This document shows positions 14,843 to 57,149 of a stretch of DNA of 61,181 nt, one piece after another. The stretch's first letter is position 1; every line of letters begins with the position of its first letter. The notes beneath the pieces are model-generated. The model was not told where the DNA came from. It searched no databases and saw nothing but the letters and a program-made list of their open reading frames with translations. The stretch is from Flavobacteriales bacterium (GTDB lineage Bacteria; Bacteroidota; Bacteroidia; Flavobacteriales; TMED113), in contig PAWM01000002.1 of assembly GCA_002714185.1 (NCBI GenBank), positions 4,278-65,458 on the forward strand, given 5' to 3'. A program made the position numbers and the translations under genes.

Positions 14843-15597
14843 AAATAATATCATATAATATAAATGGTATAAGAGCAGCTGTTCGTAAAGGTTTTTTGAA
14901 TTGGATAGAAACAGAATCCCCGGATGTAATTTGTTTACAAGAAATTAAAGCTAACACAGATCAGTTTGATGTTAGATTGTTTGAAAAATTAGGTTACAAT
15001 TGTTATTGGCATTCTGCAAAAAAAGCAGGCTATAGTGGAGTAGCAATACTTACAAAACTAAAACCTAAAAATATTGTCTATGGATGTGGAATTAAAAAAT
15101 TTGATGATGAAGGAAGAATTATAAAGGCTGAATTTGACAATATTAATATTTTATCTTGCTACTTTCCATCAGGTAGTAGCGGTGATATTAGGCAAAGTTT
15201 TAAAATGGATTTTTTAAAACTATTTTATAACTTTATTAGAAGAATCAAGGAAGAAAATAACACTCTAGTTTGTGGTGATTTTAATATATGTCATAAATCT
15301 ATAGATATTCATGATCCTATTAGAAACAAATACTCATCAGGTTTCCTAGAAGAAGAACGACAATGGATAACCTCATTTTTAAAATTAGGATTTATTGATA
15401 CTTTTCGCGAAATAAACAATAAACCAGAAAATTATTCATGGTGGAGTTATCGTGCAAGTTCAAGATTACGAAATAAAGGTTGGAGAATTGACTATCATAT
15501 GTTAAGTGAGAATCTTAAAAAAAAGATAATTAATGCTGATATATTAAAAAATATTCATCACTCTGATCATTGTCCTATTTTACTGGAAATTTCTTAA
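14839..15597 (+). CDS. xth: Exodeoxyribonuclease III
   Basis: [39 protein letters not shown]; ATGA overlap with scoB stop. Confidence 0.95.
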
Positions 15598-16553
15598 GGA
15601 CAAAGCACTGATTCACCAATCATAAGTGCAGTACCATTAAATCCTATTTCGACCAAATAACAATTGCCATTACCATCATTAATTATTAAATCATTTAGAT
15701 TTAGATAATTCGAAGGTGGACCCACTGGACCCACTGGACCCACTGGACCCACTGGACCCACTGGACCTATCGGCCCCATACTTAAATCATTTAAAAAATC
15801 TTGTTCTGTTCCAGGATTTCCATCATTATCGCTGTCGTTATTTGCATTATCTCCTTCTTGATACCATAGCTCATATGTATTTGAAGCTAATAGTAAAATA
15901 AACTCATTTAATGTGCCTTCATTGCCGTTTGCTAGCCATGATTCATATAAACTTGCTCCAGTTGGACCTTGTGAACCAGTAAGGCCTTGTGAACCAGTAG
16001 GCCCAACTTCACCCTGTGGTCCAGTAGGTCCCATAGGTCCTTGTGGACCTGTAACACCCTGTGGTCCAGTAGGTCCCATTTCACCCTGTGGTCCAGTAGG
16101 TCCCATTTCACCCTGTGGACCTGGATTCCCCGGGTTTTCACTTGTCTCAGCGAACAATGCATAAGGTACACTTCTTAGTTGAGTAGATCCTATAATTAAA
16201 TAATCTGTTTCTGAAGTGTTTGAACCTACTTCAGAGATACCTATTGTTAAAAAATGCAAGTGATTCCCCCAATCTATTAATTCAAAATCTGAAGTTGGAG
16301 TTGCTTGCCCACCACCAATAGCTAAATTTACTAATCCTATGTTATTAGTAGTTACTGAAAAATGTTCTTCTCTATATATTGGAAAGTTGTCAGGACTATC
16401 TTCAGAAATACTGACAGAAATATTAATTGTTTCATTCACTCTAGGCTGCCAGTTAGCATCTCTTATTACAGTTTGATATGAAAATGTGTGAGGTGCTTGT
16501 GCACCAACAAGTCCAATAAAAAGAATTAAAAAAATATTAAATAAATTTTTCAT
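15594..16553 (-). CDS. Secreted collagen-like fibre protein
   Basis: Signal peptide; N-domain FSYQTVIRD...SVPYALFA; two Gly-X-Y tracts; two S/TxYExW..GN.GT..xF linker motifs; C-terminal GNCY...CP; ATG at 16553 preferred. Confidence 0.85.
15718..15767. repeat. Perfect 9-bp tandem repeat (GGACCCACT)x5 plus a partial unit, encoding collagen triplets (VGP)n
   Basis: Read directly from the sequence. Confidence 0.95.
15960..16125. repeat. Imperfect 27-bp tandem repeats encoding GPQGEMGPT-type collagen units
   Basis: CACCCTGTGGTCCAGTAGGTCCCATTT exact at 16055-16081 and 16082-16108, with degenerate copies on both sides. Confidence 0.85.
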
Positions 16554-16554
16554 A

Positions 16555-17043
16555 TTAATTATGCTTTTGAATTTGATAAAATTGTATTGAATTATCACTA
16601 AATACTATTTCTAAAAAGTAAACTCCATTTGAAAATAAAGATAGATCTATAACTTGTTTTACATCACCCGAAGCACTAGAAATTGATGCTAGGAGAACAC
16701 CTTTTGTGTCAATTAATTTTAAATCTACTTTTTCTTTTGTGTTACAATTAATGTAAATAACATCAGTAGTTGGATTGGGATAAAAATCAATTTTATAATT
16801 TTCCCTAAACTCACTAATGTGTGATATCTCATAATTTTCTTGATGAAATCCTTGAGTGAGTATTACATCATTTTGATTAATTGTTTCAATAGAAATTTCT
16901 CCCAAAGAAAAAGATAAATTATAATTATCTTGTGATAATGTTCCACCTGAAGAAGCAATTAATTCAGGACTATTAATAATTTCTACCTGAGCATATAAAT
17001 TATTCATTGAAAAGAAAAATAAAAATAAATATAATCTATACAT
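16555..17043 (-). CDS. Small T9SS type A sorting domain protein
   Basis: Signal peptide; short N-domain IASSGG..LSFSLGE..LTQGFHQ; CTD FYPNPT...GVYFL...IQK; ATG at 17043 preferred. Confidence 0.85.
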
Positions 17044-17047
17044 AAAT

Positions 17048-18667
17048 CTATTCTTTAATAAAACAATGTGTAGCTGACTGATCATCTGACTGTAAGTTAA
17101 TAAAATATGTTCCTGTTTTTAATCTTTCAACATCTAATTTAATACTATTTGGTTCTGATTGAAAATTTTCATCTAAAATATCTAGTATTTGTCTTCCTTG
17201 ACAATCATAAATCTTTAATAATAACTTTGAAAAGTTTTTAAAATTATGAGTAATTGTAATTTCACTGTTTACAGGGTTTGGAAATATATCAACATATGAA
17301 TTTATGTTTTCTGATATACTTGTTTCCTCTGAAATACCTAAGTAAATATCTTCATCCCCTTCTTCGTAGGGTACATAATAAATTGGGCAAAAAAACATTT
17401 CATCAGTTGTTAATTCACCCCACGACATATTAAAATCATTAGTATTATCATATTTAGCAATAGCTTCTATTCTTGAGCCTGCAGGAATATGTTGCATATA
17501 TTCAGGGTAATAAAAACCTTGCCAATCAAAATCCCAATCAGGAATTTTAATAATAGGTAATGTTTCCCCATTGGGGGTTTCAGCATATACTTCCCATGAT
17601 TTCCCCATTAAATGAGAGTGTGGTAAAATACCCAATAAACTCCAGGCCTCAGGCAATTCGCAATTCTGTTCTCCATATAATCCTGTAGGTTGACCAAATT
17701 GATAAATTTCACTAGGGCCAAACATATCAAGAAAAGAATTTGAAAAGTTTAAACATGCCTCTAGTTCAGTTTGTGTATTTGCTTGTATATCCAAGTCTAA
17801 TCTCAACCACATTTTCATTTGAACCTCTCGTTGTACTTCTGAGGCTGGTTTTGTAAATATATTTATTGATGACTTGTCCCATTCATCAATAGATGATGGG
17901 GCATAATGAATTTGACACAGTAAATCAGCACCTGCTGGAATTTTCATTCCAAGTTCACCATTCCAAACTATTGGATTCATTCCTGGTGCATAACCACCTA
18001 AAAAAACATAATCATTTGGACTTACCCCGTCTAAACTAAAACCACCAAAAGACTCATATCCTAAAACATTTGGTGATTCAGCATCAAGTTGTGCTGCAGT
18101 ACCTGTAACATCAATCATCATAATTGCATGATGAACCGCCTCTCTATTATCAGGCCTAAATTCAATTGATTTAATATATGTGTCTTCTGTAAAACCGGTT
18201 GGAAATACAAACACTCTATAATCGTCCATATTATTTCCTTCAATATAATACTCGGATTCCATTTCAAAAACATAATCAGGCTCACCAATAGCTGATCCTG
18301 ATGGAAAGTCAGGGATAGATGCTTCTAGGGATGGGTCTCCCTCAGGATACCCTTGATCAACCCAATCACTAATTAACATTTTTTCTTCTTCAGTTAAATA
18401 TCGCTGATCCAATAAAGCATGATTTGTATAGCTAGGGTCTGGAGGCCAAGGAGGCATATAATTATTTTGAGTTACCTCTTTAATCATATCTGCCATTGCA
18501 GCTACCTCAGGATATGAGGTGAAAGACATAGGGCCTGCTTCACCTGGTCTATGACAACTTGTACAGTTATTATATATAATTGGGGAAATATCTTCAGTAA
18601 ATGTAATTTCATTTGTTTGACCAAATGACAGATAACTAATAAAAGAAAACAGTATAATTTTTTTCAT
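17048..18667 (-). CDS. T9SS-secreted copper type II (PHM/DBH-like) monooxygenase with N-terminal cytochrome c-like domain
   Basis: Signal peptide; CTSCH heme motif and MPPW; VHH, QIHY, PHSH, DEM copper ligand motifs; CTD IFPNPV...GTYFI. Confidence 0.8.
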   Translation of the reverse strand: MKKIILFSFISYLSFGQTNEITFTEDISPIIYNNCTSCHRPGEAGPMSFTSYPEVAAMADMIKEVTQNNYMPPWPPDPSYTNHALLDQRYLTEEEKMLISDWVDQGYPEGDPSLEASIPDFPSGSAIGEPDYVFEMESEYYIEGNNMDDYRVFVFPTGFTEDTYIKSIEFRPDNREAVHHAIMMIDVTGTAAQLDAESPNVLGYESFGGFSLDGVSPNDYVFLGGYAPGMNPIVWNGELGMKIPAGADLLCQIHYAPSSIDEWDKSSINIFTKPASEVQREVQMKMWLRLDLDIQANTQTELEACLNFSNSFLDMFGPSEIYQFGQPTGLYGEQNCELPEAWSLLGILPHSHLMGKSWEVYAETPNGETLPIIKIPDWDFDWQGFYYPEYMQHIPAGSRIEAIAKYDNTNDFNMSWGELTTDEMFFCPIYYVPYEEGDEDIYLGISEETSISENINSYVDIFPNPVNSEITITHNFKNFSKLLLKIYDCQGRQILDILDENFQSEPNSIKLDVERLKTGTYFINLQSDDQSATHCFIKE

Positions 18668-18679
18668 AAAAAAATAATT

Positions 18680-19309
18680 TTAATAATTTATAAGACAACC
18701 TACAGCATCCGTTTCGAAATATACAATTTCTTCCTGATTTATAAAATCAGTTAAAATATTTGACAAAAAATTCTGTGTTGGAGGACTCCATTCACCTAAT
18801 TCTTGGTAACTATTATCAATCATTCCTTTATATACTAGTTCCCCATTTATCTCAATAAATATTTCTGGTGTTACTGAAGGTAAGTAATTTTGTGTATATA
18901 ATCCTGGAATATTAGCATTATGATTATAGTCAATTGAAATATTAAAAGGAATATCATAATCTATTATAAAATCTGCAATACTACTATTTGTAGAAAATGA
19001 ATTTGGCGAAAATCCTCTAAAAACAAAATCTTGATTTAAAGTGTCACAAAAGTATCGGTAAGCATCCCTAAGAGGACCACACATATACTGAGCTATTGGA
19101 CAATTTTCATAAAGAAAAACCGTAACCATGACTTCAGGAATGGTGCTAGGCTCAGGCAAGCAAGCATCCCAACATTCTTCTAGTGAAGAAAACAAACCTG
19201 AATCACTCTCAACGCAGCAGCAACTTTCACATGCATATCTGGTTTCTTCAGCCTGTTCACAAGAAAAGAAAAGTAAAATTAAGAAAATAAATATTGTGAA
19301 TCTTCTCAT
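18680..19309 (-). CDS. Redoxin (thioredoxin-fold, peroxiredoxin-like) lipoprotein
   Basis: Lipobox FFSC; CPIA, VTPE cis-Pro loop, YKGMIDN, C-terminal AVGCLI. Confidence 0.75.
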   Translation of the reverse strand: MRRFTIFIFLILLFFSCEQAEETRYACESCCCVESDSGLFSSLEECWDACLPEPSTIPEVMVTVFLYENCPIAQYMCGPLRDAYRYFCDTLNQDFVFRGFSPNSFSTNSSIADFIIDYDIPFNISIDYNHNANIPGLYTQNYLPSVTPEIFIEINGELVYKGMIDNSYQELGEWSPPTQNFLSNILTDFINQEEIVYFETDAVGCLINY

Positions 19310-19316
19310 TATTTAA

Positions 19317-19324
19317 CAAAGGTA
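19317..19324 (-). promoter_or_regulatory. Bacteroidota -7 promoter element (TACCTTTG) for the four-gene cluster
   Basis: CAAAGGTA on +, immediately upstream of the ATG at 19309. Confidence 0.5.
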
Positions 19325-19364
19325 ATCATTTAATGGTTAATTATAATTCTTTTAATGAATAGTG

Positions 19365-19436
<72 letters not shown>

Positions 19437-19475: not shown

Positions 19476-19511
19476 ATAATTTGAACTATATTGTCACATC
19501 TAAGATGTGAT

Positions 19512-21612
19512 ATGTCAAAAAGAAAAAAAAACAATCAAATAAACTTAAAAGATTTCATATTAGAAATTCTAAAAAATAATAAATCTACTATGAATAGTAG
19601 GCAGTTAGCCTGGGCACTAAATATGAAGGGTGGCAAACATCTTAAAAAGATTACTTCTTCTCTTAAGAAATTAGAACATGAAAAATTAATTATTCAATCT
19701 GAAAAATATAAATTTCAGTATAATAATAATAAGTTTACAACAGGTGTTATTGACATAAATAAAGCTGGTAATGGCTATGTATCATCTAAATTTTATAAAG
19801 ATGATATTTTTATAGAAAAAAAAAAACCGACTTAATTCTTTAAATCATGATACTGTATCAATAGAAATAATTAAAAGTAAAAAAAGTGGATTTGCTGGAA
19901 GGGTACAGGAAGTTATTTCAAGAAAACAAAATAAATTTATTGGAAGAATCAAAAAAGAATCAAAAAATTACTTTTTTATTGCGAATAATGCTAAAATAGG
20001 ATCTGATTTTTTTATTCCACTTGAAAAATTAAATGGTGCTAATCATAATGATTTAGTAATAATTGAATTTATAGATTGGCCGGTCACTGCTGGATGCCCT
20101 TTCGGATCCGTAGTTAAAATTCTTGACGATGAACTAAATTTAAAAACATATATTAATTCATTAATTGAAACTTTGAGTCTTAGAAATTCATTTTCTGATG
20201 ACATTAATTCTGAACTATCTAAAATTGATACGACGATTCCCGAAAAAGAAATAACAAAAAGAAGAGATTTCAGAGATAAGTTAACTTTTACAATTGATCC
20301 AGACGATGCAAAAGATTTTGATGATGCTATATCTTTTAACTTACTACCTAATAATAATATTGAAATTGGAATACATATAGCTGATGTCAGTTACTACATT
20401 CAACAAGATTCTGCTATTGATAAAGAAGCATTTTTAAGAGCATTCTCTATTTATTTCCCTGGCAAAGTGATTCCTATGATTCCTGAAAAATTATCAAATT
20501 TAGTTTGTTCACTCAGACCTAATGAAGACAAATTAAGCTTTTCCATTGTTGTTCAATTTAACACACAATTTAAAATGTTAGAAAATCTTTGGATGGGTAA
20601 AGGTATTGTTAATTCCAATAAACGATTTACATATGAGGAAGTTGAAAATATTATAAATTTAAAGGATTCAAAAAAATATAAAGAAATACAGATTCTATAT
20701 AAGATAAGTAAAAATCTTAGGGAAAAAAGAATGAGGAGTGGTTCAATTGACTTCAATCGAAGTGATATAAAATGTATATTAAATAACGATATGGAGCCCG
20801 TTAAAGTAATCGAAAAAAAAACATTAAAAGCACATAATTTAGTTGAGGAATTTATGTTAATAGCTAATAAATTAGTAGCAAATAAACTATCTGCATTAAG
20901 GCAATCAATTTATAGAATTCATGATTTACCAAATCAAGAATCACTGGAAGAACTTTCTTTATATTTGAAGCATCTTGGAGAAACTAGTATTAATTTAAAC
21001 TCGCGTGATAAAAATCTACCAAATACAATTAATAATTTATTAAAAAAAGATGATTTAAAGGCAAATAAAAAAATACTTCAGAACCTAATTTTAAGGTCGA
21101 TGTCAAAAGCAAGCTACAGTAGGAAAAACATAGGACATTATGGTTTAGGATTTAAAAAATATACTCACTTTACATCTCCAATAAGAAGATATGCTGATTT
21201 ATTAATTCATCGTATTCTAAATGCTGCGATTTACAATAGTAAAATTAACATTTCAGAATTAGATAAACAGTGTGTACATTTTGCGAATGTAGAAAAATCT
21301 TATACCGATATTGAAAGAAAAACAAATAAATTTATACAATTAAAATTACTAGAAAAGTCTATCGGTCAAACTTTTAAGGGTCTTATATCAGGATTAACAA
21401 AATGGGGTATATATGTTGAGTTGGAGGATGGGGCTGGCGAAGGTCTTGTTGCAATTAAAGAATTAAAAGACGATAATTATTATTTAAATGAAGCTAAAAA
21501 ATCTTATGTCGGAAGAAAAAGTGGAAAAAAATTCCAACTTGGTCAGGAGGTAAGTGTAGAAATTAAAAAAATAAATTTATTAAAAAATGAAATGGACATG
21601 GTATTTGTTTAA
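19512..21612 (+). pseudogene. rnr: Ribonuclease R, frameshifted at an A11 run (19816-19826); may be a sequencing error or slippage site
   Basis: Removing one A gives DIFIEKKNRLNSLNHDTV..., open into the 20173 ORF with TIDPDDAKDFDDA, HFTSPIRRYADL and an S1 domain. Confidence 0.88.
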
Positions 21613-52386: not shown

Positions 52387-54126
52387 TTGATGTTAAAAAA
52401 AACTATCTTATTAAAAAACAAAGCTTCTTTACTTCCCAACAAGGTGGGTGTTTATTTTTTTTTAAATAAACAAAAGGTTTTGTATGTTGGAAAAGCTGTT
52501 AAAATCAGGGCTCGCGTTCTTTCTTATTTTAAAGATTTTTCTAATAAAAACGTGGCTATAGTTGAATCTTCAAATGACATAAAGTATATATTGGTGGATT
52601 CTGAAGAAGATGCTTTTTTTCTTGAAAATTCTTTAATAAAAAAACACCAACCAAAATACAACATACTTTTAAAAGATGATAAAACCTTCCCTTGGTTGTG
52701 TGTAAAAAACGAACGTTTTCCTAGGGTTTTTATTTCCAGAAAAAAAGATAATTCTTCAGACTTTTATTTTGGTCCTTATGTTTCTAGAAAAACTTTAAAT
52801 AATTTATTTGGGTTAATTAAATCATTATATCCAACCAGAACATGTAATTATAATCTTTCTGAAAAGAACATAGCTTCAAAAAAATATAAGGTTTGTTTAG
52901 AGTATCATCTAAAAAATTGTTTAGGACCATGCGAGGGTTTTTGTTCTGATCAAGAATACGATAAAAACACAGAATCTATAAAAAATATATTGTCTGGGAA
53001 GTTTTCTTTTGTTTTAAATGATTTAAAGAAAAAATTAAAATATAATACAGAAAATTTGTTTTTTGAAAAATGTGAAGTTATAAAAAACCAAATATTTGCA
53101 GTTCAAAACCTTAAAAATAAAAGTGTTGTTGTTTCAGAAAAAAATATAAACTTAGATTGTTTTTATATTTACTCTATTAAAAATAACACTTATGTTAATT
53201 TTATTAGAGTTATAGAGGGTTCTGTTATATTTTTAAATAATTATATTTTTAATAAAAATTACTATTATAGTGATGGTGTTGTTTTAGAAAATATTATAAA
53301 GACTATTTATATAAATTATAATTATGTTTCTGATTTAATCATTTCTAATATAAGTTTTTCAAATTTTTTAAAAAAAAAAATAATTGTTCCTAAGAGGGGT
53401 TATAAAAAAAGTATTCTTAATTTTTCACATAAAAATTTAATAAGTTTCATTAATTCAAAAAATTCTGATTTTAATTTATTAAGTGATTTAAAGGAAAAAT
53501 TATATTTAAAAAAAATTCCTTTTCACATTGAATGTTTTGATGTTTCTAATTTAATGGGCTCTAACACAACTTCTTCTTGCGTTGTTTTTAAAGGTGGTAA
53601 ATCATCAAAAAAAGACTATAAATCTTATATTTTAAAAGATAATAAAATTGATGATTATGAGTCTATATCTGAGTCTGTTTATAGAAGATATAAAAATAAA
53701 AATAATATTCCTGATTTAATAATTATAGATGGAGGAAAGGGTCATTTAAGAGCTGCTTTAAACATATTAAGTTCCTTATGTTTAAGTGGTGTTGATGTAA
53801 TAAGTATAGCTAAAAAAGAAGAAATAATTTATAAAAAAAATTTAAAAGAAATTATTTTAAATAAAAATTCTAAAACACTTCATTTAATTCAATATATTAG
53901 AAATGAAGCACACCGTTTTTGTTTAAAAAAACATAGAATTAAAAGAAAAAACAATTTTTTAAATTCTGATTTAAATAATATTAATTTAATAGGAAATAAA
54001 ACTGTTTTTAAATTATTAAAAAAATTTAAATCTATTAATAATATTAAAAAAGCATCTTTAAAAGATTTAAAAAAAATAATAGGAAACAATAAGGCAATTA
54101 TTATATATAAACATTTTAAAAATTAA
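52387..54126 (+). CDS. uvrC: Excinuclease ABC subunit C
   Basis: GVY..LYVGKA, PKYNILLKDDK, IECFDVSN, IDGGKG, IRNEAHRF, C-terminal HhH. Confidence 0.93.
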   Translation: MMLKKTILLKNKASLLPNKVGVYFFLNKQKVLYVGKAVKIRARVLSYFKDFSNKNVAIVESSNDIKYILVDSEEDAFFLENSLIKKHQPKYNILLKDDKTFPWLCVKNERFPRVFISRKKDNSSDFYFGPYVSRKTLNNLFGLIKSLYPTRTCNYNLSEKNIASKKYKVCLEYHLKNCLGPCEGFCSDQEYDKNTESIKNILSGKFSFVLNDLKKKLKYNTENLFFEKCEVIKNQIFAVQNLKNKSVVVSEKNINLDCFYIYSIKNNTYVNFIRVIEGSVIFLNNYIFNKNYYYSDGVVLENIIKTIYINYNYVSDLIISNISFSNFLKKKIIVPKRGYKKSILNFSHKNLISFINSKNSDFNLLSDLKEKLYLKKIPFHIECFDVSNLMGSNTTSSCVVFKGGKSSKKDYKSYILKDNKIDDYESISESVYRRYKNKNNIPDLIIIDGGKGHLRAALNILSSLCLSGVDVISIAKKEEIIYKKNLKEIILNKNSKTLHLIQYIRNEAHRFCLKKHRIKRKNNFLNSDLNNINLIGNKTVFKLLKKFKSINNIKKASLKDLKKIIGNNKAIIIYKHFKN

Positions 54127-54431
54127 AATGTTTATAAATTTTATTTATAAGAGTAAACTTATTAACACAATATTTCTTTTTTTTTTAATTATTTTTTATT
54201 GTTTTTTTTATTAAAATTTATTATTTAAAATTTACTATTTATTAACAATAATTATTAATAATTTAAGTAACAATTTTATGTTTATATACTTTTATGGTAT
54301 TAATATATTTTGTTAATACAAATCTGTTTTATATAGTTAATTATTTGTTTATAATATTTAATATGTTATATAACAAAAAATTATAAAAAAAATTATTATA
54401 TATATTAACACACATATATATATATATATAT
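54127..54431. other. Extremely AT-rich non-coding spacer with repeated TTATWAACA-type boxes; candidate replication origin (or terminus) locus
   Basis: 305 bp between convergent genes; seven degenerate DnaA-box-like 9-mers; (AT)9 tract; strand composition flips here. Confidence 0.55.
54408..54431. repeat. Alternating purine-pyrimidine tract (AC)3(AT)9
   Basis: Read directly from the sequence. Confidence 0.9.
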
Positions 54432-55577
54432 TTATTTATTTAAATATTTAATATTATTTATATAATATATATTAGCTCCTAAATTATTATTGTTATTACC
54501 TGATTTAAATGCTTTAGAATCTTTATTTAATAAATAATTAAATTTATCAGAATCTATATATAAAGGATTTGTATAAATATTATAATAACCTTTTAATGAA
54601 TCTGTATTAGATAAACAATAAGAATTATTTATTAAAGTATTTTTTACATTAAATAAATTTTTATTATTTGAAAAAATATTGTTTTTAGAAATTATATTTT
54701 TTTTATTAATTGTTAAATGAGATTTTAATACTAATTCATTTTTATCAAAAGTGTTATTAATTAAAAAAATTTGAACGGTATCTTTATTATTAATAACAGT
54801 ATTATTATTAATAAATAAATTATTAAAAATTTTAAAATATCCTTTATTACTATTTATAGTAAAACCATTTATATTTTTATAAAAAATATTATTTAATAAA
54901 TTAAAGTTATTACTATTAATAATTTCTATTTTTTTATTTTTTATAAACAAGCAATTATTAATAATAGAATTTTTACAATTTTTAATTAAAAAATTTTTAT
55001 TATTTAAAAAAAAACTATCGTTAAAATCAAAATCAACATTAGTTATAATAAAATTATTCCTTTTAAATAAGGAATTATTTATTTTGATTTTAGAGTTATT
55101 AAAAATTAAATTTGAAAATAAAAAAATAGAATTATTAATATTAATATTAAAACTATTAATAATTACATTTTTTATAAAACAACCATTAATATAAATTTCA
55201 CTATTTAAATCTGAATTTATTTTAAATTTATTTTTAGAATATATTTTTGTGTTATAATATATTTTTTTATTAATTAAATTATCATCTTTATAACTATAAA
55301 TAGAGTCACTTTTAATATTTAAACCAATTAATAAAGTACCATTATTTGTGATATTAGCTCCCTTTTTCACATTAATAATTACTCCATTTTCAATTATTAA
55401 AACTTTATTTTTTGGAATTATTAAGTTTTTTTTAAGTGTATATTTTTTATTATTTTTTTTAATTATATAGGCATTATTATAGCCATTTATATATAAATTA
55501 AAATCTTTGCTTTTTACATTAATATGTTTTGTACAACTAAAGAAAAATAAAGTAATTAATATAAAATATTTAATCAT
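54432..55577 (-). CDS. Right-handed beta-helix repeat lipoprotein, extremely N/I/K-rich
   Basis: Lipobox FFSC; NCLFIKN/NNIFYKN/NNLFINN/NNTFDKN repeats; C-terminal NPLYID..Y.L..DS.A..SG..LGA. Confidence 0.65.
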   Translation of the reverse strand: MIKYFILITLFFFSCTKHINVKSKDFNLYINGYNNAYIIKKNNKKYTLKKNLIIPKNKVLIIENGVIINVKKGANITNNGTLLIGLNIKSDSIYSYKDDNLINKKIYYNTKIYSKNKFKINSDLNSEIYINGCFIKNVIINSFNININNSIFLFSNLIFNNSKIKINNSLFKRNNFIITNVDFDFNDSFFLNNKNFLIKNCKNSIINNCLFIKNKKIEIINSNNFNLLNNIFYKNINGFTINSNKGYFKIFNNLFINNNTVINNKDTVQIFLINNTFDKNELVLKSHLTINKKNIISKNNIFSNNKNLFNVKNTLINNSYCLSNTDSLKGYYNIYTNPLYIDSDKFNYLLNKDSKAFKSGNNNNNLGANIYYINNIKYLNK

Positions 55578-55583
55578 TTTGAT

Positions 55584-57149
55584 TTAAATAAAATTAGTAT
55601 CATTAATTAATTGTTTTGTATAATTATTTACACCATCTAATAATAAATTTTTTGAATTAACAAAATCAATAATTTCACCATTTTTTAATACAATTACTTT
55701 ATTACATAAATAATAAATAGAATTTATATCGTGAGAAATAAAAATGATAGTAATTTTTAAAACTGAATTGATAAAACGAATTAATTCTAAAATAGATAAC
55801 TGAGTTTTAATATCTAAAGCAGAAATAGATTCATCAAAAACAATAACATCAGGGTTAGATGCTAATACACGAGCAATCGAAACCCTTTGTTTTTGACCAC
55901 CAGAAAGCTCATGAGGATACATATTTATAAGTTCTTCTTTTAAAGAAACAAGATTAAAAAGATCAGAAACCAAATAATTAGTTTTATATAAATCAACTAT
56001 TTCAGAAACACTATTTCCAACAGTATATTTAGGATTAAAAGAAGAGTATGGATCTTGATAAACCATTTGAACAGAGTTTTTTAAAAAAAATCTATTATTA
56101 GGATAAATAAAATCACCAGTAAAACTATTATGAAGACCACAAAGAATCCTACCTAAAGTTGTTTTTCCTGAACCAGAAGAACCAACAACCCCCAAACACT
56201 CCCCCCAACCAACAGAAAAGGAAATGTTTTTTAAAGCAAAAAATAAACCATCACCTTTTGTTTTATAAGAAACAGATAATTTTTTAATATCAAATAAAAC
56301 AGAATCTTTTTTTTCATTTTTTTTAATAAATTTTTTATAAAAACCATAAGAATCAATATTAAAAGAATTAAACCGAGAACGTGTTTTAATAATATTTAAC
56401 ATCTTATATAAATCAGAAAAAAGAGAAGAAGAAGAAGGTTTACCAACATTAATAAAAGAAGAATTTTTAAACAAGTACACCCGATTACAATAATAGTTTA
56501 TTAAATCAATATTGTGACTTATTAAAAGAACACTTAAATTATAATTGTTTTTTAATTTTAAAATTAAATCTAAAACCGCCCTTTGTGTAGAGGGGTCCAA
56601 AGAAGTAGTTGGTTCGTCTGCAATTAAAAGACTAGGTTTAGATGCTAAAGCTATAGCGATAACCACCCTTTGTTTTTGACCACCAGAAAGCTCGTGGGGG
56701 TAGGAAAAATAAACCTTCTCAGGAAAAAGAATACCAACATCTTTTAACAAACCAAAACAATAATCAAGATTATCTTTTACACCAACAAAAGAGCAGGCTT
56801 CTTTAATTTGTTTTCCACAAATCATAGTTGGATTAAGCGATGTTGATGGGTTTTGAAAAACCATAGAAACATCTCCCCCCCTTAACGAACACCAATCCTC
56901 ATCGTTATTAGAAAGAAAATTAAAGCAACCATTAGTATTATTAAAAATAGCACTATCAGCCGTTACTGAAAAAACCTTACGATTTAAGAAACCCATTAAA
57001 AAATATGAAAAAACAGACTTTCCTGACCCAGAGTCACCAAAAAGACCAACCACCTCACCTTTGTGAATATTAAAATCAGACCCACTAATTAATTTCTCAC
57101 TCTTTTTAGATATTGTTAGGTTTTTTATTTCAATTAAATTAATCATCAA
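55584..57149 (-). CDS. ABC transporter ATP-binding protein with two fused DppD/DppF-like domains
   Basis: GDSGSGKS and GSSGSGKT; YPHELSGGQKQR twice; DEPTTSLD and DESISALD. Confidence 0.92.
   Translation of the reverse strand: MMINLIEIKNLTISKKSEKLISGSDFNIHKGEVVGLFGDSGSGKSVFSYFLMGFLNRKVFSVTADSAIFNNTNGCFNFLSNNDEDWCSLRGGDVSMVFQNPSTSLNPTMICGKQIKEACSFVGVKDNLDYCFGLLKDVGILFPEKVYFSYPHELSGGQKQRVVIAIALASKPSLLIADEPTTSLDPSTQRAVLDLILKLKNNYNLSVLLISHNIDLINYYCNRVYLFKNSSFINVGKPSSSSLFSDLYKMLNIIKTRSRFNSFNIDSYGFYKKFIKKNEKKDSVLFDIKKLSVSYKTKGDGLFFALKNISFSVGWGECLGVVGSSGSGKTTLGRILCGLHNSFTGDFIYPNNRFFLKNSVQMVYQDPYSSFNPKYTVGNSVSEIVDLYKTNYLVSDLFNLVSLKEELINMYPHELSGGQKQRVSIARVLASNPDVIVFDESISALDIKTQLSILELIRFINSVLKITIIFISHDINSIYYLCNKVIVLKNGEIIDFVNSKNLLLDGVNNYTKQLINDTNFI

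Follow-up and report, generated by a model that had tools for sequence, protein, structure and literature searches.

How does a bacterium supply electrons to an enzyme with two copper sites? Peptidylglycine alpha-hydroxylating monooxygenase (PHM) and dopamine beta-hydroxylase (DBH) are the textbook animal enzymes of this kind, known from amidated hormones and noradrenaline, and electron supply to their two copper sites is central to their mechanism. The question is raised by a gene pair in a 61,181-nt stretch of DNA from a Flavobacteriales bacterium (assembly GCA_002714185.1, contig PAWM01000002.1, positions 4,278 to 65,458; the whole stretch is the window). In the list of open reading frames (ORFs), a predicted heme-c/PHM-like two-copper enzyme of 539 amino acids (aa) occupies 17048..18667, including the stop codon, on the minus strand. 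The gene for a 209-aa redoxin lipoprotein lies upstream on the same strand at 18680..19309, separated from it by 12 nt (18668..18679). Here, then, is a bacterial homologue that has every copper ligand and, in addition, a predicted cytochrome c of its own, with a thiol protein as dedicated partner. A preliminary description of this DNA, made from the letters, had named the two ORFs, the 12-bp spacing and the active-site motifs, and we find all of them where it placed them.

Judged from its sequence, the window locus is the split, two-gene form of a widespread bacterial system that combines a redoxin, a c-type cytochrome and a PHM/DBH-type copper core. The family is very large, yet we found no publication on it. 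Literature searches for bacterial heme-fused PHM-like enzymes, which were partly swamped by taxon names, returned none; no characterised member of the fused redoxin-cytochrome c-Cu2_monoox family was found in the literature, and its database entries are unnamed or 'hypothetical'. The host genome comprises 1.52 Mb in 21 contigs and is 88.7% complete. The window has a G+C content of ~30%, and its nearest public relatives are marine Flavobacteriales metagenome-assembled genomes.

Four alignments underlie the comparisons: A1, the redoxin lipoprotein family; A2, the close enzyme family; A3, the wider enzyme family, with 83 sequences that share 29-80% identity with the window protein; and A4, the fused forms. 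For the locus survey, 80 Bacteroidota loci were retrieved with A2 from the contigs of one genome per species.

The predicted core retains the ligands of both copper sites of PHM

Behind its signal peptide the enzyme carries a heme-c module (CxxCH...MPPW), then a core of two domains, and it ends in a type IX secretion system (T9SS) type A tail. Its translation contains C35-T-S-C38-H39 and M71-P-P-W74, followed by V178-H179-H180, Q252-I-H254-Y (QIHY, 252-255), P349-H350-S-H352 and D422-E-M424. Compared with the PDB, the A3 profile matches PHM over both domains (E 1.1e-8, chain residues 26-276) and DBH (4zel, E 7.4e-8). PDB searches with the single enzyme sequence or the narrower A2 profile retrieved no copper enzyme; only A3 found PHM and DBH. 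The alignment of A3 with PHM delimits an N-terminal CuH beta-sandwich domain, approximately residues 130-285 (17813..18280, minus strand), which carries H179, H180 and H254, and, together with PF03712, a C-terminal CuM beta-sandwich domain, approximately residues 286-445 (17333..17812, minus strand), which carries H350, H352 and M424. Residues ~296-342 of the CuM domain form a clade-specific insertion in A2.

In this alignment VHH falls on PHM chain positions 63-64, QxHY on 128, PHxH on 198 and 200, and DEM on 270; a chain offset of 44 converts these positions to H107, H108, H172, H242, H244 and M314. The candidate CuM residues H350, H352 and M424 pair with H242, H244 and M314, which we take to be the CuM ligands of PHM. 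The candidate CuH residues H179, H180 and H254 pair with H107, H108 and H172, described as binding CuH in the available portion of the source (PMC6123673). All six ligand columns are retained in 80/80 survey loci. Within A3, H180 and H254 are invariant, as are C35, C38, H39, M71 and P72 of the heme module, and H179, H350, H352, E423 and M424 are present in at least 90% of rows. Such conservation shows that these motifs did not arise by chance. Pfam scans of the A3 members (E<=0.01) give Cu2_monoox_C (PF03712) in 62/83 and Cu2_monooxygen (PF01082) in 36/83. By alignment the enzyme keeps both copper ligand sets of PHM and DBH, His-His+His and His-x-His+Met, and the homology proposed in the preliminary description is thereby borne out.

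The substrate appears to differ. PHM residues R240, N316 and Y318, which presumably hold the substrate carboxylate, align with L348, F426 and P428 of the window enzyme. Because these positions are Leu, Phe and Pro, a glycine-extended peptide is probably not the substrate.

A conserved heme motif precedes the core and a sorting domain follows it

The putative c-type heme domain spans approximately residues 17-125 (18293..18619, minus strand), as delimited from invariant columns and a sub-threshold Cytochrome_CBB3 match, and also holds a conserved LT..E..I..W helix. CxxCH is kept in 79/79 evaluable survey loci and M71, which may serve as the sixth heme ligand, in 78/79. PF13442 (Cytochrome_CBB3) matches 36/83 A3 members, and in PDB profile comparison the domain weakly resembles the heme domain of hydrazine synthase alpha. 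Genes for cytochrome c assembly (PF01578, 151.4 bits) and for a DsbD-type membrane reductase (DsbD_TM, 73.5 bits) are present in the host genome.

The C-terminal sorting domain, residues 461-539 (17051..17287, minus strand), is the sole part of the enzyme that passes curated cut-offs on the single sequence. It scores 54.6 bits against a cut-off of 27 for PF18962 (E 1.4e-14) and 44.3 against 23 for TIGR04183 (E 1.3e-11). The genome also encodes the T9SS translocon (SprA_N, 554 bits). Both the conserved heme-attachment motif and the T9SS type A tail read in the preliminary description are thus upheld.

The partner is a redoxin with a peroxiredoxin-like cysteine layout

The redoxin begins with a signal peptide whose lipobox cysteine is Cys17 and continues with a variable Cys-rich stretch (~24-52) and a thioredoxin-fold domain (56-208). 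Its motifs are C70-P-I-A (70-73), T147-P-E149, G162-M-I-D-N (162-166) and G204-C205. A family search returned 82 relatives, all unnamed. Pfam and NCBIfam scans of the 209-aa protein gave no match at E<=1, so the fold is assigned entirely from profile and structure comparison. With hhalign, A1 matches the fused redoxin domain of A4 over the whole domain (99.2% probability, E 3.2e-19, 143 columns), and lipoprotein and fused domain have in common CP[IV]x, TPE, Y+G.ID[DN] and GC.I. An Atlas model of the lipoprotein (predicted TM score 0.71) matches Redoxin/AhpC-TSA clusters at TM scores of 0.64-0.67, among them a 659-aa Planctomycetota cluster that also has Cu2_monoox_C.

The nearest solved structures to the redoxin profile are 2ywi from Geobacillus (E 2.2e-4) and 2cvb from Thermus (E 3.3e-4). 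Both share CPxx, TP[ED], Y+G..[DN] and a C-terminal GC.IK with the redoxin; their depositor names, 'Hypothetical conserved protein' and 'probable thiol-disulfide isomerase/thioredoxin', carry no function. The equivalent C-terminal cysteine of templates including 2ywi is read as a resolving cysteine in the accessible part of one report (PMC3091736).

Among the survey partners the first cysteine is kept in 58/58 evaluable sequences and the cysteine of the C-terminal GC in 60/60. The fourth position of the CxxC motif is Ser in 27, Cys in 22, Thr in 6 and Ala in 3 of the 58. Because the first and the C-terminal cysteines are invariant and the second CxxC cysteine is dispensable, the working pair is predicted to be C70/C205 rather than a CxxC, in a peroxiredoxin-like layout. 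The thioredoxin fold of the earlier assignment holds, as judged by hhalign, the Atlas model and the PDB profiles; with CPIA and the variable fourth position, the redoxin is not a classic CxxC thioredoxin. Selenocysteine was also considered as an active-site residue and rejected: the lone stop-interrupted redoxin ORF (locus L015) contains several stops and belongs to a decayed gene; no active-site selenocysteine codon accounts for the interruption.

Redoxin and enzyme are linked by adjacency, fusion and duplication

A same-strand redoxin gene lies directly beside the enzyme gene in 60 of the 80 Bacteroidota loci. In 54 of them it precedes the enzyme gene, at a median distance of 22 nt; in the other 6 it lies downstream. 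The 20 loci that lack one comprise 4 long paralogous forms, 9 in which the flank is ended by the contig end and 7 with full 4-kb flanks. In other relatives the two proteins are one. Among the best 150 enzyme-family representatives, 23 begin their match more than 100 residues in. Pfam scans of 24 longer relatives (these 23 and P0241) find AhpC-TSA/Redoxin in 19/24, mostly N-terminal and in P0241 C-terminal. Atlas clusters that combine these families come most often from Planctomycetota, Acidobacteriota and Myxococcota.

The host genome holds three enzyme paralogues: the window pair, a second pair and a long form, the last two on other contigs. In the second pair (contig C10; locus L009 149..2061, minus strand) the enzyme is 31% and the redoxin 29% identical to the window proteins; the gene order is the same and the genes overlap. 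Its redoxin, of 191 aa, has CPLC; its heme-Cu protein, of 453 aa, starts with a lipobox-like sequence, lacks a T9SS tail and scores above the cut-off on Cu2_monoox_C (27.8 bits). The long form (contig C4; locus L002 1..2358, minus strand) exceeds 786 aa in an open frame of 987 aa, contains many Cys-rich repeats of the 'C..D..ACNY' type and has no adjoining redoxin. Many of its relatives (P0061-P0119) end in a Kunitz/BPTI domain (PF00014).

Co-folding places the cysteine face of the redoxin on the heme domain

To see how the two proteins might meet, enzyme residues 17-455 (with A3) plus heme were co-folded with redoxin residues 53-209 (with A1) in three runs. The scores, which express the model's own confidence, were 0.72, 0.73 and 0.64 (median 0.72), against 0.01 for the best of 3 controls. 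The mark used for calibration is reached by 116/157 solved complexes and 2/215 mismatched pairs, counts that give only a rough guide because custom alignments and heme were used. The runs share at least 94% of contacts, and the partner pLDDT is at least 91.

On the redoxin the predicted interface comprises residues 69-71, 74-79, 103-105, 167, 171-176 and 205-209 and includes both C70 and C205. On the enzyme it comprises residues 46-47, 53-61, 64-65 and 70 of the heme domain, between CxxCH and MPPW, with further contacts at 146-148 and 257-260 in the CuH domain, the latter just past the ligand H254, and at 381. The interface takes in many invariant or near-invariant positions of both alignments. 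The model supports binding of the redoxin to the heme domain through its cysteine face.

Fusion, adjacency, the second pair in the genome and the co-fold together argue for a dedicated partnership. The preliminary description had called the redoxin the enzyme's own; the survey of adjacency or fusion across genomes that it suggested agrees with it.

A proposed path from a protein dithiol to O2

We propose that the redoxin dithiol reduces heme c, heme c reduces CuH, and CuH supplies CuM-O2, which oxidises a substrate, all within a split three-module system. We give this reading a probability of roughly 0.55. The enzyme would cross the inner membrane by Sec and would be loaded with heme c and copper in the periplasm, from where the T9SS would export the 539-aa protein, probably to the cell surface. 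The redoxin, a lipoprotein with an acidic, export-signal-like N-terminus, would dock on the heme domain, and its C70/C205 dithiol would hand two electrons singly to the heme. The heme would pass them to CuH (H179, H180, H254). CuM (H350, H352, M424) would bind O2 and oxidise, most likely hydroxylate, the substrate, with the second electron arriving from CuH as in PHM. Since the redoxin would feed the heme and the heme CuH, heme and protein thiol would supplant ascorbate.

The direction of flow follows from the couples involved. The potentials of thiol/disulfide couples are much lower than those of c-type hemes and type 2 copper; transfer from thiol to heme to copper to O2 would therefore run downhill, and the reverse would not. 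The preliminary description had gone as far as an O2-dependent C-H hydroxylase whose heme is fed by the redoxin. Homology, heme motif, tail and dedicated redoxin stand; O2-dependent C-H hydroxylation, the feeding of copper through heme by the redoxin and a location on the cell surface are what we infer from them.

Several observations weigh against this path. The window enzyme itself scores below the cut-offs for both of its inner modules (Cytochrome_CBB3, residues 32-76, 21.1 bits against 27; PF03712, residues 344-432, 20.3 bits against 23) and gives no PF01082 match in the Pfam scan. The 7/80 loci with full 4-kb flanks and the 4 long paralogues have no redoxin, and 1 of the 60 paired loci has a decayed redoxin remnant, so the enzyme can exist without an adjacent partner. 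The co-fold score measures confidence, not binding. It would also be unusual for a thiol to reduce a c-heme directly, with no flavin or metal as mediator. If the enzyme is surface-located, we know of no pathway that would re-reduce the redoxin there, DsbD being periplasmic. Finally, the redoxin has CPIA in place of CxxC, and its nearest structures, 2ywi and 2cvb, are uncharacterised peroxiredoxin-like proteins; for both reasons some room is left for a peroxide-linked or an assembly role.

Alternative roles for the redoxin

The alternative that survives best makes the redoxin an assembly factor of the ResA/TlpA/Sco kind, which would keep CxxCH reduced or deliver Cu(I) before export and leave the electrons to another donor. 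We consider it unlikely. The redoxin is of the same fold class as TlpA, ResA and Sco: homologous partners and fused domains match Redoxin/AhpC-TSA, and its Atlas model matches Redoxin clusters. Its two conserved cysteines could hold Cu(I), and the predicted interface reaches residues 257-260 near the CuH ligand H254. Some loci do without a partner. On the other hand, permanent fusion in 19/24 long forms is easier to reconcile with a working partner in fixed stoichiometry than with a chaperone that binds transiently, the co-fold puts the redoxin on the folded heme domain and not on the CxxCH cysteines, and the A1 alignment contains no Sco-type CxxxC+His motif.

Where the two proteins meet bears on the same choice. 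A T9SS cargo and a lipoprotein might encounter each other only in the periplasm, as an assembly role would have it. However, the mature redoxin starts with C-E-Q-A-E-E, which is Q-A-(D/E)2 displaced by one place; its relatives are acidic but variable here. In the part of the source available, the export signal of Bacteroidota surface lipoproteins is K-(D/E)2 or Q-A-(D/E)2 at +2 to +6, with position critical (PMC5080379). The second pair consists of two exported proteins with neither a T9SS tail nor an acidic N-terminus. Because the window pair combines the tail with the acidic N-terminus and the second pair has neither, the members of each pair seem to reside in one compartment. This speaks mildly for a working partnership and against a chaperone confined to the periplasm.

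A second alternative keeps the whole downhill electron path proposed above and changes its purpose. The pair would be an O2-driven thiol oxidase whose product is the oxidised redoxin, which would make disulfides in Cys-rich exported proteins, with no separate substrate to hydroxylate. The Cys-rich N-terminal module of the redoxin, the Cys repeats of the long paralogue and its relatives, the Kunitz domains of those relatives and the fact that the redoxin is the sole partner conserved across the 80 loci would all suit this role. Against it, both His-rich sites and the CuM Met, the ligand set of a substrate-hydroxylating enzyme, are kept in 80/80 loci, and disulfide transfer finds no support in the analysis. 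Moreover, O2 reduction by PHM is described as completely coupled to substrate hydroxylation in the portion of the source at hand (PMC9064607). We regard such an oxidase as improbable.

The weakest alternative, that the redoxin is a peroxiredoxin-type peroxidase which removes H2O2 or organic peroxide from the copper enzyme, or that the pair handles peroxide, draws on the N-terminal CPxx cysteine, the C-terminal cysteine in the place of a resolving cysteine and AhpC-TSA as the top Pfam match of the homologous domains, but is very improbable, given that the PxxxT/SxxC motif of peroxiredoxins is not seen in A1, that re-reduction of the disulfide by a c-type heme is implausible and that docking on the heme domain is left unexplained.

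Comparison with characterised enzymes

PHM (1phm, 1opm, 1sdw) shares the two beta-sandwich domains with CuH and CuM ligands at aligned positions. In enzymes of the PHM/DBH class the two copper sites are separated by solvent and lie about 11 A apart. Unlike the window enzyme, it has no heme domain, redoxin or T9SS tail, and its reductant is ascorbate; R240/N316/Y318 of PHM are replaced by L348/F426/P428, and the likeness is detectable only by a family profile. In the available portion of the source, CuM activates O2 and the two coppers contribute one electron each (PMC6123673). DBH (4zel) and the DBH-like monooxygenases share the same catalytic core (E 7.4e-8); DBH differs in being an ascorbate-dependent enzyme of eukaryotic vesicles. 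DBH proteins also carry an extra N-terminal DOMON domain before the copper core, a parallel to the N-terminal heme domain of the window enzyme, but the DOMON domain of DBH is no c-type cytochrome with covalent heme, nor is it known to relay electrons.

Closest in composition are the fused redoxin-cytochrome c-Cu2_monoox proteins of other phyla, which belong to the same family and have the same modules, the same redoxin-then-enzyme order and the same redoxin motifs. In the window, by contrast, a gene of its own encodes the redoxin as a lipoprotein, and the enzyme adds the T9SS tail and the clade-specific insertion. A mechanistic analogy, and only that, is offered by cellobiose dehydrogenase, whose heme domain feeds single electrons to the mononuclear copper of lytic polysaccharide monooxygenase, an extracellular oxidative enzyme. 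That system differs in its b-type heme, flavin electron source, unrelated fold and separate copper enzyme.

Electron transfer between the coppers could be studied conveniently in a soluble, genetically encoded chain that needs no ascorbate, and the family would point to an unrecognised oxidative reaction in environmental bacteria. Because the window enzyme has a T9SS export signal and a separate lipoprotein partner, the reaction may occur outside the cell. More tentatively, the natural electron source of a PHM-type copper monooxygenase could be a protein dithiol acting via a covalent c-heme, an ascorbate-free arrangement deployed both in the periplasm and on the Bacteroidota surface to hydroxylate extracellular substrates; in this full extent we think the idea possible but doubtful. 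If it is true, the pair would be a self-contained redox chain that hydroxylates, for example, peptides or dissolved organic matter without ascorbate. Three copies in a streamlined marine genome of 1.5 Mb would then suggest that much O2-dependent oxidation in ocean and soils takes a route so far unrecognised.

Distribution and expression

A word-indexed search with the enzyme returned 1,342 relatives. In an exhaustive comparison of residues 1-455 with 50%-identity cluster representatives, the number of matches falls from 12,431 at E<=1e-3 through 6,582 at E<=1e-10 to 1,787 at E<=1e-30. An even sample of the phylum gave matches at E<=1e-10 in 23/301 genomes; 2 of these match by the tail only, so the enzyme core is present in 21/301. 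The distribution across the phylum is patchy. A viral link, raised by one Atlas cluster (score 0.87; 53% viral members) with the name 'Cytochrome c domain-containing protein', was dropped; a scan of viral contigs gave no relative.

Of the words sampled from 15594-19400, one metatranscriptome run contains a fraction of 0.45 and another 0.23; both fractions refer to the region as a whole and are not resolved to genes. A sigma-70 scan gave 23 promoter-like sites, where shuffled sequences lead one to expect 24.6, with a consensus that may not be the host's; Bacteroidota promoters deviate from the sigma-70 consensus. A terminator scan of the gene cluster found no minus-strand terminator.

Neighbouring genes and other features of the window

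Downstream of the enzyme on the minus strand, Pfam and NCBIfam scans identify a small T9SS-tailed protein at 16555..17043. If it starts at an internal Met (MYRLYLF...), its gene begins 4 nt after that of the enzyme, and the two may be co-transcribed. One nucleotide further, if translation starts at MKNLFNIF..., lies the gene for a collagen-repeat, fibre/adhesin-like protein (15594..16553, minus strand; Collagen PF01391, 2.6e-10), which also matches NF053851 (Bdello_MAT_N) at 4.2e-9, below the cut-off, and ends the same-strand cluster. These two genes accompany the pair in 3/80 loci, closest relatives only, and stand in the same order at L010, the locus of a 76%-identical relative.

Apart from the redoxin, every neighbour is limited to 9 or fewer of the 80 loci. 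Commonest, with 9 loci each (e.g. L025 and L029), are a sensor-like protein with TPR repeats and a response regulator of the LytTR type, which may reflect dedicated regulation of the pair, and a fatty-acid-hydroxylase-like membrane protein (6 loci); all three labels come from reading the sequences by eye. The neighbours in the 80 loci give no hint of a substrate.

Elsewhere in the window, an island of ~10-14% G+C at 54000-55800 lies between a uvrC-like gene (52387..54126, plus strand) and an ABC-F-type ATPase gene (55584..57149, minus strand). It holds a 381-aa ORF (54432..55577, minus strand) with no Pfam match at E<=0.01. An RNase R-like gene at 19491..21612 on the plus strand consists of two ORFs of 114 and 479 aa, ~340 nt apart. 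It may be split or may be frameshifted in the assembly; at L010 the gene is a single 704-aa ORF.

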